A stretch of DNA of 64,000 nucleotides from Eledone cirrhosa (lineage: Eukaryota), in NCBI GenBank assembly GCA_964016885.1, contig OZ024742.1, forward strand, positions 141,546,001 to 141,610,000, given 5' to 3'. Positions 10,435-63,690 of the stretch are shown piece after piece. The position numbers were made by a program, and so were the translations under genes. The notes under the pieces are model-generated. The model saw nothing but the letters and a program-made list of their open reading frames with translations. It was not told the DNA's origin and ran no database searches. Position 1 is the stretch's first letter. Every line of letters begins with the position of its first letter.

Positions 10435-11120
10435 TTGGTGGATTGGCAGTATCGGTAGAGGGTCGGACGCCATGCTTTCCAGCATAGTTACGTCCCTTTA
10501 CGGACTCTAGTTCAAATCCCGCCGTGGTTAACTTTGCCTTTCATCCTTTCGGGGTCGATAAAATAAAGTACCAGTAATGTACTGGGTTATTGCTGGCCTT
10601 GTGCCAAAAGTAGAAACAATTATTGGAAAGGGCGGTGGATTGGCAGTATCGGTAGAGGGTCGGACGCCATGCTTGGACGCATAGTTACGGCCTTGCCATT
10701 CTGAGTTCGAATCCCGCCGAGGTTAACTTTGCCTTTCATCCTTACGGGGTCGATAAAATAAAGTACCAGTAATGTACTGGTTAATTTCTGGCCTTGTGTC
10801 AATAGTAGAAACAATTATTACTATTATTATTATAAATATCAATGAGTTCAAATCCCACCTGGGTTAGCTTTGCCTTTCATCCTTACGAGGTCGATAAAAT
10901 AAACAACCAGTCACGCAAAATTACTGGCCTTGTGCCTAAAGTAGAAAACATTATTATTATTATAAATATCAATGAGTTCAAATCCTGCCCAGGTTAGCTT
11001 TGCTTTTCATCCTTACGGGATCTAAAAAAATAAAGTACCAGTAATGCACTGGTGTCAATTTAATCCACTTTCCCCTTCCCACAAAAAATTACTGGCCTTG
11101 TGCCTAAAGTAGAAAACATT
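10435..11120 (+). mobile_element. Head-to-tail cluster of four family A SINEs
   Basis: Copies at about 10435-10625, 10630-10820, 10843-10950 and 10973-11120. A box TGGCAGTATCGG, B box GAGTTCAAATCC. Confidence 0.92.
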
Positions 11121-13555: not shown

Positions 13556-13746
13556 ATTGTTTCTACTTTTGGCACAAGGTCAGCAATTATCCCACTGTAT
13601 TACTGGTACTTTATTTTATCGACTGCGTAAGGATGAAAGGCAAAGTTAACCTCGGCGGGATTTGAACTGAGTCCGTAAAGGGACATAACTGTGCTACAAA
13701 GCATGGCGTCCGACTCTCTACCGATACTGCCAATCCACCGACCGCC
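13554..13746 (-). mobile_element. SINE family A, full length, in (TA)n
   Basis: Consensus match from the GGCGGT..GGTGGATTGGCAG head to the ACAATTAT tail. Confidence 0.9.
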
Positions 13747-14225: not shown

Positions 14226-14256
<31 letters not shown>

Positions 14257-14431
14257 AACATATCTACTAACATAAGCGCACAGATGTACGTTAATGCCAG
14301 CAAATACACAGGTTATGTCATAGTACCTAGGTGGTTCAATGCAGGAGGATGCAGAACAATAATATAAAAGACGTAAAATAAGAAAATTAAAAAAAAAAAA
14401 TTTTTTTTAAATTAACTTACTTAAATTTTCA

Positions 14432-14511
14432 CTCCAACTAATTAGTTTCTGCAATGGGATAAAGACAGTTACGTAATGAACTGTTGAGAATTTCATTGCG
14501 TCATCAGGGAG
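14432..14511 (-). ncRNA. Type I hammerhead ribozyme
   Basis: Reverse complement of 14764-14843, core intact. Confidence 0.8.
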
Positions 14512-14763
14512 GTCATTCTCAGCCAAGTCTCCAGGCAATGCGCGGACACTGGGGACTCATATAAAAATAATAATAATTCGGTAAATGGAACAGCTATCGA
14601 GGACTGGATTCCAGCTACTGAAAATTCTCACTGCCACTGATCATATGGCCGATTCAGTACCTGGAATCCAGTCCTCGATAGCTGTTCCATTTACCGAATT
14701 ATTATTATTTTTATATGAGTCCCCAGTGTCCGCGCATTGCCTGGAGACTTGGCTGAGAATGAC

Positions 14764-14843
14764 CTCCCTGATGACGCAATGAAATTCTCAACAGTTCATT
14801 ACGTAACTGTCTTTATCCCATTGCAGAAACTAATTAGTTGGAG
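14764..14843 (+). ncRNA. Type I hammerhead ribozyme
   Basis: CTCC-CTGATGA-c-GCAATG...(ACAGTT/AACTGT inner hairpin)...CATTGC-a-GAAA-CTAATTAG-TT|GGAG. Stem I is CTCC/GGAG and stem III is palindromic. Predicted cleavage after 14839. Confidence 0.82.
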
Positions 14844-15320
14844 TGAAAATTTAAGTAAGTTAATTTTTAAAAAAATTTTTTTATTTTTTAAAAAATTTTT
14901 TCTTATTTTACGTCTTTTATATTATTGTTCTGCATCCTCCTGCATTGAACCACCTAGGTACTATGACATAACCTGTGTATTTGCTGGCATTAGCGTACAT
15001 CTGTGCGCTTATGTTAGTAGATATATTAAATTATCTATATTTATCTCCAAATCACTGATTTGTCGAGCAAACCTGCCAAAACCACTTCTAAATTTTTTGG
15101 GGGTGTTAGTAGGCGTCTGTCATCTTACCATCCCATTCCTACTGACTAGCCTCTGTGTCACGTGATTGATTCTTTAGAATCGGCCATATGATCAGTGGCA
15201 GTGAGAATTTTCAGTAGCTGGAATCCAGTCCTCGATAGCTGTTCCATTTACCGAATTATTATTATTTTTATATGAGTCCCCAGTGTCCGCGCATTGCCTG
15301 GAGACTTGGCTGAGAATGAC

Positions 15321-15400
15321 CTCCCTGATGACGCAATGAAATTCTCAACAGTTCATTACGTAACTGTCTTTATCCCATTGCAGAAACTAATTAGTTGGAG
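15321..15400 (+). ncRNA. Type I hammerhead ribozyme (tandem copy)
   Basis: Identical to 14764-14843 and 557 nt downstream. Predicted cleavage after 15396. Confidence 0.82.
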
Positions 15401-15464
15401 TGAAAATTTAAGTAAGTAAGTTAATTTAAAAAAATTTTTTTTTTTTAAATTTTCTTATTTTACG

Positions 15465-15532
<68 letters not shown>

Positions 15533-16479: not shown

Positions 16480-17190
16480 CAGGATGACAAAATAAACGCA
16501 TCTTCATCACCAGAAACAGCAAACTCCCCACCTTCTATCATCTTATTAAAACATACAAAACAGGGCCAAAATAAAAAATTGGACCATATTGTTTCCGACA
16601 TAACCAGTCCTTTCTACAAAATATCCTGGCTTCATTTTAGACGTCTCAAATCTCTCTTTCACACTTTCTCCAGACACGTAGACAACTCACATGAAGGCAT
16701 TAACAAACTACAAGAACTTAACGTTATCACACTTAGACAGAATAGATATCCATTTAGCTTAGACGTAGTTTCCCCTACACCTCTGCCCCCACCCCAGCTA
16801 TCGTAGTAATTACAGGTAACATCTTCACCTCTACCGATCTCAATTGTTTCGGGGTCTTTGCTGATTTACATCCACGATCTGATCTCTGTCGTGTCGTCAT
16901 GTGCAAAATCTTTTTCCTGTTTGAAGGCTCCGTCTACAAACACATTTCGGGATTTCAGATGGGGCCAAGTCTCTCGGGCCTGCTGGTCATCACGTACATG
17001 GACCAGTTGGAGCGCATTCAGCACTTGCCGCTCTTGCTCCTTCTTTTCCAGCTACGGGGATGATATCCTTATGCTCACTTCATCACTTGAAGAAACCGTC
17101 AAGATTTGTGTCTTCGAAAACGTAGACGCACACGTGAATTTTGAGGTCTAGGACCCAGACACCACTGAATCCTTCTATCTACTCGACTTT
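16480..17190 (+). pseudogene. Penelope-like reverse transcriptase relic
   Basis: Frameshifted motifs IVSDITSPFYKISWL, FSLDVVS, GFQMGPSLSGLLVITYMDQLE, SYGDDILML and FYLLDF, in PLE RT order. Confidence 0.8.
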
Positions 17191-18091
17191 ACACTATATA
17201 CATATATTCGTGTGTGTAAACAAAAAATGATATATATATGTGAGTGTGTGCGTGCTCGTATGTTTGTGTATGTATGCGTGTGTGTGTTACTGATTTTTGA
17301 TAAGTATGCATAGCTATAGGCAAACCTTCATCCCTAAACATTGGATGATAAATGTGTATTAAAAGATGAGAACATAACCGAATTTTGTCAGGTGTTTATA
17401 TATGTATGGTGTCATTAATATTCATACTAGAGCGAGTGTTTTTGCGTATGGGTTTGTGCGTGTCTTGAAAAAGAATTCCCTCTCGGCCCCTTTCTCTGCC
17501 TTCCCTCTCTCTTTATATATATATCTCTCTCTGCATGTGTTTTTTGCTTGTGTGTTCACGTGCGTTAAAAATAGGTATATATTAAGCATTAAGAAACACA
17601 CAATTTCACGTGTGTATAAACGTCGTACATACATACATACATACATGCATAAAATGTCATAGATGCAGATTCACAATACACATACATGCGCAGCACTCAC
17701 TAAGGCATATACATTTTCATAAACTCTTAAACAGGTATATTAGTTTATACGCTCATATCAATGGAGTCATATATGCATACATAAATACATACATACGTAG
17801 CCCCCCCCCACACACATATATATAGCTGTGTGTGTATGTATCTATCTATATATATCTATCTACCTCTACACACACACACATATATATAAATATGTATGAA
17901 AAATATATATGTATAACATTTTTCAAGACTCTTCTCAGTATATGTATATAAATGTGCATTCTGTGTGTTTTTAGACATACATATATTACACTTATACACA
18001 ATTGGTGTATAATTGTGTGTGTTTTTGTATGTGATTCCGCACGTGTATGTGTTTGTGTGTGTATATGGGTGTTTGCGTCTGTGTGTGCGTG

Positions 18092-18201: not shown

Positions 18202-18237
18202 TCTTCTGATGAAGGACTAGCGTCTGAAACGTTAAGA
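18202..18237 (+). ncRNA. Minimal type I hammerhead ribozyme, PLE type
   Basis: TCTT-CTGATGA-AGGAC-TAGC-GTCT-GAAACGTTA-AGA, with palindromic AACGTT stem III. It sits in a ~155-bp insert between (TA)n tracts, on the same strand and downstream of the PLE RT. Confidence 0.78.
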
Positions 18238-26959: not shown

Positions 26960-27003
<44 letters not shown>

Positions 27004-27132
27004 ATCTGAGTATTTAGAATATTAATAGTAACATTCGATTCGTTTGAAATTATGCAAACAAGCCTCAATTTTATAGCCATGTCAGTAGAATGAACCCTTC
27101 ATTCTTGCTCTTGTGTTGGTATGTGAACAGAA

Positions 27133-27176
27133 CTGCAGACACTAATGTTTCTGGATATCACCCTTCATCAGTACAG
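27133..27176 (-). ncRNA. Type I hammerhead ribozyme
   Basis: CTGTA-CTGATGA-AGGGTGATATCCA-GAAA-CATTAGTG-TC|TGCAG. Stem I is kept through a G.U pair. Confidence 0.82.
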
Positions 27177-27353
27177 CTCACTGTTCACCTGCCAAACTGT
27201 CAGAGTTAGTGAAAATATATGCTATTTTCAAAAATACACAGTGACTGATCAGCCAGTCAGCTAATATGCAAATCAGGCCGATCAGTCACTGTGTATTTTT
27301 GAAAATAGCATATATTTTCACTAGCTCTGACAGTTTGGCAGGTGAACAGTGAG

Positions 27354-27397
27354 CTGCACTGATGAAGGGTGATATCCAGAAACATTAGTGTCTGCAG
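27354..27397 (+). ncRNA. Type I hammerhead ribozyme
   Basis: CTGCA-CTGATGA-a-GGGT-GAT-ATCC-a-GAAA-CATTAGTG-TC|TGCAG. Predicted cleavage after 27392 (GUC). Confidence 0.87.
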
Positions 27398-27502
27398 TTC
27401 TGTTCACATACCAACACAAGAGCAAGAATGAAGTGTTCATTCTACTGACATGGCTATAAAATTGAGGCTTGTTTGCATAATTGCAAACGAATCGAATGTT
27501 GC

Positions 27503-30109: not shown

Positions 30110-31770
30110 ACTAAAAATTCCGTCTCTATCAATCTCACCAGTTTTAACTTCCTAGACATTAACTTAGACCTACGTACAGACGCAGTGAAAAACGTAGGCA
30201 TATTCATAAGGACTCTAGTCACCCCTCTATAGTTTTTAACAATCTCAATCAGAATTGTTTCTACTTTTGGCACAAGGCCAGCAATTATAACAGTGTATTA
30301 CTGGTACTTTATTTTATCAACCCCGTAAGGATGAAAGGCAAAGTTAACCTCGGCGGGATTTGAACTCAGAATAGCAAGGGCCGTAACTATATGCGTCAAA
30401 GCATGGCGTCCGACCCTCTACCGATACTGCCAATTCACCGCATTCTCATTAATAATTGTTTCTACTTTAGGCACAAGGCCAGCAATTACCCAGTGCATTA
30501 CTGGTACTTTATTTTATCGACCCCGTAAGGATGAAAGGCAAAGTCAACCTCGGCGGGATTTGAACTCAGATCGTAAAGGGACATAACTATGCTGGAAAGC
30601 ATGGCGTCCGACCCTCTACCGATACTGCCAATCCACATTAATAATATCAGCAAGAATGTATCCAACGCCTCTTTTACTAAGGTCATTTTTACAGGACAGC
30701 CCCCTACTACAACTCAACCATAAGCACAGCAGCTTCTGAGTGAGAATCTCTTACCTTCCAGATCCCCGTCCTATATCTTGCAAGAAAAATTCTAGACATA
30801 AAGCTGTTGTGTCATTTGCACCACCATTCGCGTTCAACGTGAAGACTAATGTTGGTAGCCCTCTTAGATTTTCACTTCCTTGTAGGCCATAAATACCGGC
30901 AAATTTTCAACCGCCACACAGTGAAAATAAGCTACTCTTTTTACCAAAAGCATTAAATCCTACATCACCAACAAACACAAACACCTTCCATCTTACAGAT
31001 GCTCATACAGAAGACCAAAGACATGCCCCCTGGATCAACAGTGCAACAAGACGGCAAGGATATATGAAGCAGAAGTGACTTCTACCAAACTGAAGCCATG
31101 ATTTATGTAGGAATGTCTGAGAGCCGGCTCAAAAGCCATTTCCTGAACCACGAAGCAACCTTAAGACATCCTGGCAAAAAACATACAACTCCGTTTGTGA
31201 ACCATGTAGGAAATCTCAAAGATAACGGCGCAGCATTCTCCATTATATTGAGGATACTGGAAATACCCCCCCCCCCCACATCAATAGGACAAACTTTTCT
31301 AGCTGTGTGTAACCCGGAGAAGTGGAATATTCTCTCACAACTGGCTTCAGGGAAACGTAGCTTAAATACGCTCCTCGTCTGCTTCAATCCTTGTCCCCAT
31401 AAAGCAAAATTTGTTCTGAAAATGTCTAGAACAGATTAATTGAATTTGTTTTCTTTGACTTTTCAATTTAACCCCTGGGCTCCCTGTGAAACACACATTG
31501 CTTACCTTGGGTTTTCTATAGTTACCTCCCATTTCATTTACATTATTTGAGGTACTTATCTAGTTATAGATAATTTCGGGATTATACAAAATCACTGAGG
31601 GGTAGATCCCTGTTAACGGTGGCCATATCAATCTTTTGGAAGGGTCTCCGTTATTCTTCGGTTTTGAAACTGCAGTAAGGGAACTTTAGGCTGCTTGACT
31701 AGGAATATATCCCAAGTGGAAGATTTTAAATTAATTTATTGGGATCTACACCTCTGTGATTTTGTATAAG
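30108..31770 (+). mobile_element. 5'-truncated Penelope-like element (RT thumb, linker, GIY-YIG endonuclease, 3' region), interrupted by two SINEs
   Basis: Motifs [10 protein letters not shown]; VSFAPPFAFNVKTNVG; GHKYRQIFNRHTVKISYS; CSYRRPKTCPLDQQC; RIYEAEV...IYVGMSESRLKSHFLNH; CPHKAKF. A degenerate hammerhead end GAAACTGCAGTA lies at about 31666, with a short IR at 31582-31610/31741-31769. Confidence 0.88.
30253..30637 (-). mobile_element. Two tandem full-length family A SINEs
   Basis: Consensus matches at 30253-30442 and 30451-30637. Confidence 0.92.
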
Positions 31771-44373: not shown

Positions 44374-44442
44374 ATTTTATTATGCGCATTTCAAAAACAA
44401 ACATCATCAAACAATAATATTTGTGTTTTCATCAGATAAAAC
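44374..44442 (-). ncRNA. Type I hammerhead ribozyme
   Basis: GTTTTAT-CTGATGA-AAAC.ACAAATATTATTG-tt-TGATGATGTTTGT.TTTT-GAAA-TGCGCA-TA|ATAAAAT. Long G.U-rich stem II and palindromic stem III, in a ~270-bp insert between (TA)n tracts. Confidence 0.85.
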
Positions 44443-44602
44443 AGGAGAACATGATATGAAGGCTAAAAAAAACACTTGTTGATAGTGCAGTTTTAAATCA
44501 ACATATCATCTTATATTATGCATACTCCAGTCCCACAAACTGTAGAGTGCTTCTTATCCGATATCTGCATTGCTTTATTGTACTACAATAAAACTCACCT
44601 CC

Positions 44603-45281: not shown

Positions 45282-45618
45282 ATGATATTAAATAAATGGA
45301 AACTATATTTATGAAACCATATTTATTCTATTATATATATTTCAAGGGTACCATAACTTTGGTACGCTTTCATCAGATAAAATACGAAGTGTGTTTTTAT
45401 AAATTTTGAGATAACCAAGGAAAATACCTTAACTGTTCAAGTTTTCCTTGAATAGTCTATCCAAGGAAAACTTGAACCGTTAAGGTATTTTCCTTGGTTA
45501 TGTCAAAATTTATAAAACATTGAATATTATACTCCAGAAAACTTGTCGAGTGCTCTGAATCAGTTATAAACATTTATATTTGTTGAATTACCAACAAATT
45601 GAATATCCCTTCTGCTTA
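45281..45618. mobile_element. Family F PLE pLTR fold-back with an intact minus-strand hammerhead (45324-45384)
   Basis: TATTTTAT-CTGATGA-AAG.GTACCA...TGGTAC.CTT-GAAA-TATATA-TA|ATAGAATA. Inner palindrome at about 45392-45519 is centred near 45455. The right arm lacks the ribozyme. Confidence 0.85.
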
Positions 45619-52010: not shown

Positions 52011-52685
52011 CTACATTTTAAATTTATATTTATATTTATATTTAAACGTTGAGTTCAATCTATGTCTGCAGCAACTGAATAAATTGCTCCTTAAATTAAG
52101 GGAATTTTTAGATTTTAATATAAAGAATATCTCCTCCACACAGAGGTCACATGTCTCAGATGAGGAATTAAAAGGAATCCCTCTTGAGACAATATTCCAA
52201 AACATCGAATATCCAACGTTATCATGTTTAAGTTGCCAGAGTAAGCTTGATAGTGAAGTTGAAGATTGTTTGTTTGGATCTGTGAAAGAATTCTTATGAT
52301 TATTATAGCGAAGTTTAAATTCTGTCGAGGTGGAACCAACATAGTTAAAAGAATTTAAGTTAGTTTTAACATTACAATTGTATATTATATTTTTAACTAA
52401 GCAATTGTTATTTAACGGACAGTTAGATTTATTTCTACAGTTACAGTTATTTAATTGAATATTGTTTGGGTTATTATTGGTATTTTGGTTAGGTTTTAAA
52501 TTCCTATTATTAATTCTGTTAATATTTTGTGCTAAATTTTTGGTGGACGAGTAAGTTAATTTTATAGTATGTCTATTAAAAATTGAGTGATATTTATGTG
52601 TTCTAGGGAAGCGTTTGTCAAGAGCATTAAAAAATAGTTTAGCAATGTGGGTTTTAATATTTAGTGAGAAAGGGGGACAAACCAT
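52011..52685 (-). pseudogene. PLE linker plus GIY-YIG endonuclease, 224 aa open, 5'-truncated
   Basis: PPFSLNIKT..HKYHSIFNRHTIKLTYS..CNCRNKSNCPLNNNC..NIIYNCNV..NYVGSTSTEFKLRYNNHKNSF..CDLCVEE..LNLRS..CRH. Confidence 0.93.
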
Positions 52686-52768
52686 ATTATATTTCTAGTT
52701 CTATTTCTTTTCTGGCTTTTGGAATTATTGTAATGTTTTCTATTATAGTTGTTAAAGTTGTTACCGTA

Positions 52769-53812: not shown

Positions 53813-54110
53813 TATTAAATAAATGGAAACTATATTTATAAAACCATATTTATTTTATTATATATATTTCAAGGGTACCAAGACACATTGGTACGCTTTC
53901 ATTAGATAAAATACAAACTTTGCATTTTATCTGATGAAAGCGCACCAATGTGCCTTGGTACCCTTGAAATATATATAATAAAATAAATATGGTTTTATAA
54001 ATCTAGTTTCCATTTATTTAATATCATTGAATATTTACTCTAGTAATATGTTGAGTGCTCTAAATCAGTATATTTGTCGGACTTCCAACAAATTAAATAC
54101 CCCTTCTACT
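53813..54110. mobile_element. Family F fold-back (centre 53918) with intact plus-strand hammerhead 53924-53984
   Basis: ATTTTAT-CTGATGA-AAG.G.ACCAA...TTGGT.C.CTT-GAAA-TATATA-TA|ATAAAAT. The left-arm partner reads CTAATGA. Arms are about 105 bp with essentially no spacer. Confidence 0.87.
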
Positions 54111-58391: not shown

Positions 58392-58653
58392 TAGATAGTT
58401 AGATAGATGAGAGTGGGATGAAAGAGAGAGAGTGAGAGAGTAAATTATTATACGTGTGTGTGTGTGTTCGTTTGTGTGAATGTGTGTGTGTGTGGACGTG
58501 TGTCTAGTAACTGTAAAGAGCAAAGTCGGATTGACAATTTTGTCATCATATACTTGCACTGTCACTTGAAGTGATTTTATGTCACACACACACACACACA
58601 CATATGTAGATTACCGAGTTGTGTCAGGGTGGTTGGGTAATAATACTCAGTTA

Positions 58654-59042
58654 AATAATTGTTTCTACTTTTGGCACAAGGCCAGCAATTACTCAGTGCA
58701 TTACTGGTACTTTATTTTATCGACCCCCATGAAAGGCAAAGTTAACCTCGGCGGGATTTGAACTCAGACTGGCAAGGGCCGTAACTCTATACGTCAAAGC
58801 ATGGCGTCTGACCCTCTACCGATACTGCCAATTCACCGCCCTTTACTCAGTTAAATAATTGTTTCTACTTTAGGCACAAGGCCAGCAATTACCCAGTGCA
58901 TTACTGGTACTTTATTTTATCGACCCCGTAAGGATGAAAGGCAAAGTCAACCTCGGCGGGATTTGAACTCAGACTGGCAAGGGCCGTAACTATGCTGGAA
59001 AGCATGTCCGACCCTCTACCGATACTGCCAATCCACCGCCCT
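58654..59042 (-). mobile_element. Tandem dimer of family A SINEs with repeated target sequence
   Basis: Two full copies. TACTCAGTTAAAT occurs before, between and twice after them. Confidence 0.92.
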
Positions 59043-59104
59043 TTACTCAGTTAAATAATACTCAGTTAAATGTACTCAAGACATTGGTAGAGTATAGGGA
59101 TCTT

Positions 59105-63615: not shown

Positions 63616-63690
63616 CACCCAGACAGATTTGGTGGGCTGTTTCGCAATTTTAGCAAAGGGAATTAGCAATTCGTTGCTCATCAGTGGATG
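63616..63690 (-). ncRNA. Type I hammerhead ribozyme with conventional looped stem III
   Basis: CATCCA-CTGATGA-GCAA...TTGC-GAAA-CAG-cccaccaaat-CTG-TC|TGGGTG. Canonical G10.1-C11.1 pair and GUC site. Confidence 0.88.

Follow-up and report, generated by a model that had tools for sequence, protein, structure and literature searches.

Does a locus with three identical hammerhead motifs, two on one strand and one on the other, represent a distinct kind of element, or is it one copy among many of something already known? This question is raised by a short part of a 64,000-nt stretch of the Eledone cirrhosa genome (contig OZ024742.1, positions 141,546,001 to 141,610,000; the whole stretch is here called the window). 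A preliminary description had read it as a distinct triple-hammerhead element, a self-excising 557-nt monomer fused to an antisense arm. We found that the locus (14241-15472) is an ordinary copy of a non-coding hammerhead repeat family, with nothing special about it. Our main reading, to which we give a probability of roughly 0.7, is that it is one young insertion in a non-coding Penelope-type family, made at a (TA)n target by the enzyme of an autonomous Penelope-type element (PLE) that primed twice on one sense-strand RNA. What is of interest is not the locus but two signatures that can be counted across the family and that open the PLE mechanism to testing.

The locus, its hammerheads and the repeat family

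We numbered the unit from the first base after the predicted cut, with m1 at window position 14840 and m557 at 15396 (Table 1). S denotes the short start site, with the arm end at m83, and L the long start site (m197-205). The direct arm (14653-15472) is composed of m371-557, m1-557 and then m1 to S, which agrees with the roughly 1.5 direct units of the preliminary description, as does the presence of (TA)n at both ends. The inverted arm measured about 415 bp instead of the 365 bp or so given there. At m378, the 5'-truncated unit has a C, while the full unit and the inverted arm have a G. The 557-nt unit folds better than its shuffles (z -5.15; 0 of 100 shuffles as good). The tail hairpin between S and L shows compensatory changes across 18 representatives, where one of five measures (further pair types) failed to beat the shuffles. 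The hexamer downstream of the cut presumably resembles a splice donor (a putative label), and the conserved motif at 15156-15169 resembles what we take to be an E-box plus an inverted CCAAT box, a possible, putative internal promoter.

Table 1. Features of the locus (window coordinates; m, position in the 557-nt unit)
Feature	Position	Strand	Remark
(TA)n target, left	14226-14252	no strand	
Inverted arm: m338-557, then m1 to ~m200, ending at L	14241-14655	-	Left edge blurred by TA run
Hammerhead in inverted arm	14432-14511	-	Predicted cut after 14436, minus strand
5'-truncated unit, m371-557	14653-14839	+	Overlaps inverted arm by 3 nt
Hammerhead 1	14764-14843	+	Predicted cut after 14839
Full 557-nt unit, cut to cut	14840-15396	+	
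Hexamer shortly 3' of cut	14855-14860	+	Retained in most subfamilies
Short start site S (m83)	14907-14922	+	One of two fixed arm ends
Long hairpin in tail, S-L interval	14975-15026	+	Compensatory changes; z -3.97
Long start site L (m197-205)	15030-15044	+	Other fixed arm end
Conserved motif	15156-15169	+	
Hammerhead 2	15321-15400	+	Predicted cut after 15396
Terminal partial unit, m1-83, ending at S	15397-15472	+	
(TA)n target, right	15470-15531	no strand	

No convincing ORF was found, as had been stated before: a single frame of 148 codons (14719-15165), the longest one, had no Pfam match. Its 128-aa form, starting from an ATG in stem II, was present in only one of 75 units, and the frame is a chance feature of one copy. 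A second, unrelated two-armed insertion lies at window 27001-27500, with short-stem hammerheads at -27171 and +27359 and relatives in several of the fetched loci.

A motif scan of the whole window recovered the three identical type I hammerheads reported at the outset, with cores at +14768, +15325 (557 nt apart) and -14507 and identical 91-nt stretches. The motif has a stem I of 4 bp, a stem II of 6 bp above a C.A mismatch, a 12-nt palindrome as stem III and the triplet GUU. Its core boxes, three stems and NUH triplet are those of a type I hammerhead, and self-cleavage is predicted. None of the hammerhead models in Rfam matched the motif at either threshold, so the evidence for a hammerhead comes from the motif scan and from covariation. 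Matches to miRNA-like Rfam models were set aside as the hairpin formed by the inversion. When 11 subfamily representatives were aligned, pairing was retained in 97% of 132 stem cells, compared with 24-53% in slid controls, and 0 of 500 shuffles were as high, a count that is not a probability since the aligned sequences are related. The second pair of stem II shows four pair types in these representatives. Across subfamilies that are about 70% alike, the catalytic core is invariant and the stems covary.

The palindromic stem III had been proposed to favour a double hammerhead, and the computed folds agree: the double fold of two strands reached -38.4 kcal/mol, whereas the best monomer fold, an inactive one, gave 2 x -15.7 for the same two strands. 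In the monomer, the active fold was computed to lie 2.5 kcal/mol above an inactive one. The intermolecular stem III helix was predicted to comprise 10 bp (-9.0 kcal/mol) and to end beside the cut.

The core pattern had 9,145 plus 40 matches in the 3.0-Gb genome, a 21-mer spanning the cut had 4,461 exact copies and a 41-mer of the youngest subfamily had 247, while the reversed controls gave 0. With thousands of copies and no control match, the hammerhead is not due to chance. The many subfamilies are about 70-100% alike and have units of about 500-560 nt. The genome check for dispersed and tandem copies proposed in the preliminary description showed the unit to be high-copy and dispersed, not single-copy. 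Its reading of the unit as non-coding and PLE-type likewise held up, as there is no conserved ORF and the anatomy is Penelope-type. The family shows the traits of non-LTR retrozymes (non-coding, high-copy units arranged in tandem runs of two or more, with a type I hammerhead in every unit) as well as those of non-autonomous PLEs (partial tandems, an inverted 5'-truncated copy, a one-ended tail and a microsatellite target). Family sequence occurs in contigs of four runs from three studies and is thus not an assembly artefact at the family level; no contig of the runs from three studies spans this locus itself. Among the family loci mapped, none had a unit adjoining an ORF with RT plus GIY-YIG, as in the pLTR of a coding PLE; rare coding copies may exist. 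Two loci (L032 and L033) resembled chimeras with a coding element in appearance only, and this was ruled out.

Several copies have unusual surroundings. At L032:785-1310, past the last cut, the unit runs into a different repeat that has its own inverted arm ending in (TA)n. Three entire insertions plus flanks (L036, L136, L259) are present in tandem duplicate at 3.5-4.0 kb spacing. One long array (G000:C3:20669118-20680310; L223, L224) contains 21 units with a four-unit period made of changes that postdate the insertion, and arrays at C28 ~8.80-8.91 Mb, C12 ~24.46-24.52 Mb and C2 ~312.6 Mb appear to span 60-110 kb and may be satellites derived from single insertions. The 21-unit array and the alternating units of L035 fit DNA duplication better than a multimer circle.

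Outer and inner arm ends across the family

The short unit is present in thousands of copies, which makes insertion ends countable. Following genome order along contig C1 over its first 86 Mb, we took 55 of the 57 insertions listed there, the other two being already in the top-hit set. An inverted arm was present in 36 and absent from 19; an earlier tally of 37 two-armed insertions had included one chance fragment, since dropped. Arm lengths range from 20 to 1,300 nt across insertions. Opposite-strand hammerhead pairs have, moreover, been described before (PMC4209133). These findings do not support a distinct element with a purposeful antisense arm.

Outer arm ends lie at one of two sites, S or L, where they abut (TA)n or (CT)n. 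Two-armed insertions combined one S with one L in 100 of 100 scorable cases, with no S-S and no L-L pair. This was so in the genome-ordered set (34/34 scorable among 36 two-armed, 55 insertions), the top hits (14/14 scorable among 15 two-armed, 24 insertions), young copies (19/19 scorable among 20 two-armed, 37 copies), older subfamilies (14/14, both ends being called in 14 of 50 loci) and 20 picked loci (19/19 scorable). The count leaves out five two-armed insertions with an unclassable end and the 36 of 50 older loci with fewer than two ends called. Ends in older subfamilies were called by motif instead of BLAST, whose calls over-ran into TA repeats. Independent choice between the sites at even odds would give such a result with a probability of 0.5^100. 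The longer arm is carried by either site (20 versus 17 in the 37-insertion tally), and the two arms of one insertion share their subfamily and private variants (L025, L097, L119, L041). A similar pattern was seen in an autonomous family of the same genome, called Hydra-like by similarity to a fragment with a CxCx5C linker. There, hammerhead, S and L follow in the same order, and 10 of 11 two-armed copies combine S with L, the other (L330) being an L+L pair.

At the locus in question, a single RNA of three units would account for both arms if priming took place at S and L in its last unit. A family-wide test of same-unit priming on an A/T tract was null (12 versus 11 of 27, p 0.73). At several double-ended loci only one arm crosses a junction, so S and L are not always in the same unit. 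An inner-end pile-up at m413-457 was considered as a transcription start and rejected, as it went from 11 of 24 arms at first to 2 of 19 on replication.

Inner ends were counted with genome-wide patterns showing the bases that precede a unit position, the rows being sorted by eye into hammerhead-like and junction. Junction rows made up 42 of 81 at m1, the cut, and 10 of 58 at the control m543, 15 nt upstream (binomial p ~1e-9, or 2e-8 counting insertions, for uniform ends and assumed base frequencies). They numbered about 49 among the first 100 of 113 at m557, about 33 of 68 at m556 and about 33 among the first 100 of 102 at m3. Ends are thus also raised 2 nt downstream of the cut and the peak is wider than one base; trimming at joining would explain its tail at m3.

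At 20 sites both arms terminate 0-3 nt away from the cut, with 0 in the reversed control, and the spacers there are often not the templated bases. Only six sites have both arms ending at the stem III palindrome, where 12 nt of microhomology are on offer; one symmetric control gave 6 against 6 in its reversed control and the other gave 0. BLAST placed both inner ends within m1-3 in 18 of 20 picked loci. Twelve of the 20 lack a hammerhead altogether: each is an S-plus-L palindrome of about 290 bp, as expected if the copied RNA had begun at the cut. In the direct sample, exact arm ends at the cut were found in 2 of 187 arms, and the double-ended class makes up a few percent of arms.

Origin of the two arms

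As far as genomic sequence can tell, the family results likely mean twin priming on one sense-strand RNA, together with some in vivo cleavage. A read-through RNA of at least two units would be bound at the structured tail 3' of a hammerhead. Both strands of the (TA)n target would then be nicked, one priming at S and the other at L. The two cDNAs would extend towards the 5' end, halt at variable points and be joined head to head. Most cDNAs cross the hammerhead junction, so most template junctions would have been uncut or re-ligated, and the minority that end at the cut likely do so because the ribozyme had cleaved that RNA. Cleavage would probably take place as a dimer, via the palindromic stem III, and multi-unit sources would be replenished at least partly through DNA-level duplication. 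The inverted arm would be a by-product with no regulatory role. Circular RNA is not needed by this explanation.

A more specific version, for which we see the chances as evenly divided, would have a dimeric RT-endonuclease hold one sense RNA at the two fixed start sites, one primed per DNA strand, with a pLTR-type hammerhead cutting the germline template in vivo. In vitro, the PLE Poseidon nicks and extends both strands, and a dimer is predicted (PMC11167929). In that study, cleavage could be dispensed with in vitro and none of the RNA reads terminated at the cut, both of which count against our main reading. If the specific version is true, it would settle the sense-versus-antisense question left open in 2013, and cleavage by a PLE hammerhead would have left its first trace in vivo in the ends at the cut.

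A classical retrozyme cycle, in which flanking hammerheads cut, the 557-nt monomer is circularised and rolling-circle reverse transcription yields tandem units, is a serious though tentative alternative. The monomer is strongly structured, the footprint at the cut suggests that cutting occurs, and mussel retrozymes accumulate as circles (PMC7229834). Units of one insertion are also mostly identical apart from private changes, a homogeneity that fits either a circle or a homogeneous tandem source. The units at this locus, however, differ at m378, a site segregating in the family, and one insertion (L052, G000:C1 ~25.166 Mb) joins units from two subfamilies, a young partial unit being joined to an old unit across the hammerhead region by a template switch or from a chimeric source. 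While 159 of 187 arms cross at least one junction, as rolling-circle copies would, 128 of 187 cross at most one, and long arrays grow by DNA duplication. The pairing rule is unexplained by the circle alone. Excision as a putative 557-nt circle is possible, and a circle as the source of the template is compatible with twin priming.

We consider it unlikely that the inner ends at the cut instead reflect pausing of reverse transcriptase at dimerised stem III, with a hammerhead that does not cleave in vivo. It is true that the 10-bp intermolecular helix stops beside the cut, that the excess of ends extends over several bases, that stem I has only 4 bp in this subfamily and that, in vitro, 8 of 9 Xenopus retrozyme dimers were uncleaved (bioRxiv 10.64898/2026.07.22.740005). 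A pause does not readily account for the 20 sites with both arms 0-3 nt from the cut and often untemplated spacers, nor for an invariant core and covarying stems across subfamilies about 70% alike.

More doubtful still is a single priming event after which the product folds back or primes itself, on an antisense template as put forward in PMC3846280, while resolution by the endonuclease in the tail creates the second end. It would also yield a one-ended tail, endonuclease resolution has been suggested (PMC8557442), and some junctions lie on small palindromes (L127, L104, L003). At this locus, however, the inverted arm is no sub-stretch of the direct arm: no single direct-arm stretch contains it and it ends at the other fixed start, so simple fold-back fails. 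Across the family, moreover, the longer arm occurs at either site, and the cut, a feature of the sense strand, is where inner ends gather, whereas they avoid the best palindrome (20 versus 6 sites).

That a distinct element keeps the antisense arm to mask the first ribozyme and regulate excision is highly improbable: the proposed masking stands for a transcript entering from the left flank, in which all 84 nt of hammerhead 1 pair with the arm and hammerhead 2 lies outside, but not otherwise, since a transcript starting inside the unit would lack the arm. Arm length and junction, moreover, vary freely, 19 of 55 insertions have no arm, and no second copy with the same junction was seen among the loci examined.

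Partner element and comparison with known systems

No autonomous element sharing the unit sequence was found in the four families scanned with profiles. In a Neptune-like family (796-aa ORF) and three Hydra-like families, profile matches were confined to nested repeat copies; of the three profiles used, one (A1) included a row, L128, with wrong coordinates that ran into the flank. A fifth candidate family (L014, L034) was compared by eye only. From anatomy and target, our best guess at the partner is a Hydra-like element. In the Hydra clade, nearly every family has (TA)n as its target and bears hammerheads (PMC8557442).

The window and the fetched loci contain further PLE-related sequences. 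In a young Neptune-like PLE (L167, L168, L171, L172), the 796-codon frame encoding RT plus GIY-YIG is overlapped by an upstream ORF in a different reading frame, and microsatellites make up the roughly 1.5-kb 3' region. Hammerhead candidates were also seen at window 44381-44600, 45332-45376, 53931-53977, 63622-63684 and 18206-18233; the autonomous Hydra-like family (L303-L331) ends in a sequence matched by the candidate at -44435. More than 12 hammerhead types with a palindromic stem III occur among the fetched loci. PLE coding fragments lie at window 52014-52694 (-), 30637-31343 (+) and 16830-17196 (+), the first belonging to an abundant, young family that showed no hammerhead in the 1.5 kb downstream. 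Window 10437-11017, 13560-13740 and 58644-59059 are tandem and dispersed copies of a tRNA-derived SINE, which presumably resembles octopus SINEs.

In the main texts searched, drawn mostly from open-access papers, we found no report that each arm strictly takes one of the two sites, that genomic copies end where a PLE hammerhead cuts, or that this family exists. The origin of inverted arms and one-sided tails in PLEs, and the question of in vivo cutting by their hammerheads, are described as open (PMC3846280, PMC8557442, PMC11167929). Two sharp predictions for the in vitro PLE system already in use follow from the 100/100 pairing and from the ends at the cut, and the same end counts are applicable to any PLE family in a long-read assembly.

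Tandem units plus an inverted arm are the published insertion pattern of PLEs, and such units have been published as non-LTR retrozymes; retrozymes are described as PLE derivatives, and PLE insertions as tandem plus inverted. Like metazoan non-LTR retrozymes (PMC7229834; bioRxiv 10.64898/2026.07.22.740005), the family consists of non-coding, low-GC tandem units with type I hammerheads in thousands of copies. Its unit length is within their reported 51-972 bp, and PLE dependence has been proposed for them. Their hammerheads are canonical, whereas that of the family is PLE-type, with a short stem I and a long, branched stem II. The family also documents the full PLE anatomy (inverted arm, two start sites, (TA)n), and no partner pLTR was found for it in the four families scanned.

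The closest counterparts of the hammerhead itself are those of PLE pLTRs (PMC4209133), which share a stem I of 4-5 bp, a long stem II, G10.1-C11.1, a palindromic stem III, an extra base between positions 9 and 10.1, and opposite-strand pairs 100-700 bp apart. The family differs in a second extra base before G12 (the C.A mismatch, retained across subfamilies), in its 12-nt stem III palindrome and in a stem II arm of about 50 nt. With EN+ PLEs, particularly the Hydra clade (PMC8557442; PMC3846280), it has in common partial tandems, 5' truncation, a head-to-head inverted copy, a one-ended tail and (TA)n insertion. Unlike them it has no ORF, and its tail is about 120 nt compared with their 30-40. 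Their tail is described as optional or often one-sided, while that of the family was one-sided in 100 of 100. In vitro work on the Anolis element Poseidon (PMC11167929) likewise found two internal start sites downstream of the hammerhead, which match the two genomic ends. There, the start sites did not differ from strand to strand and no reads fell at the cut, whereas the family has one site per arm and some of its copies end at the cut.
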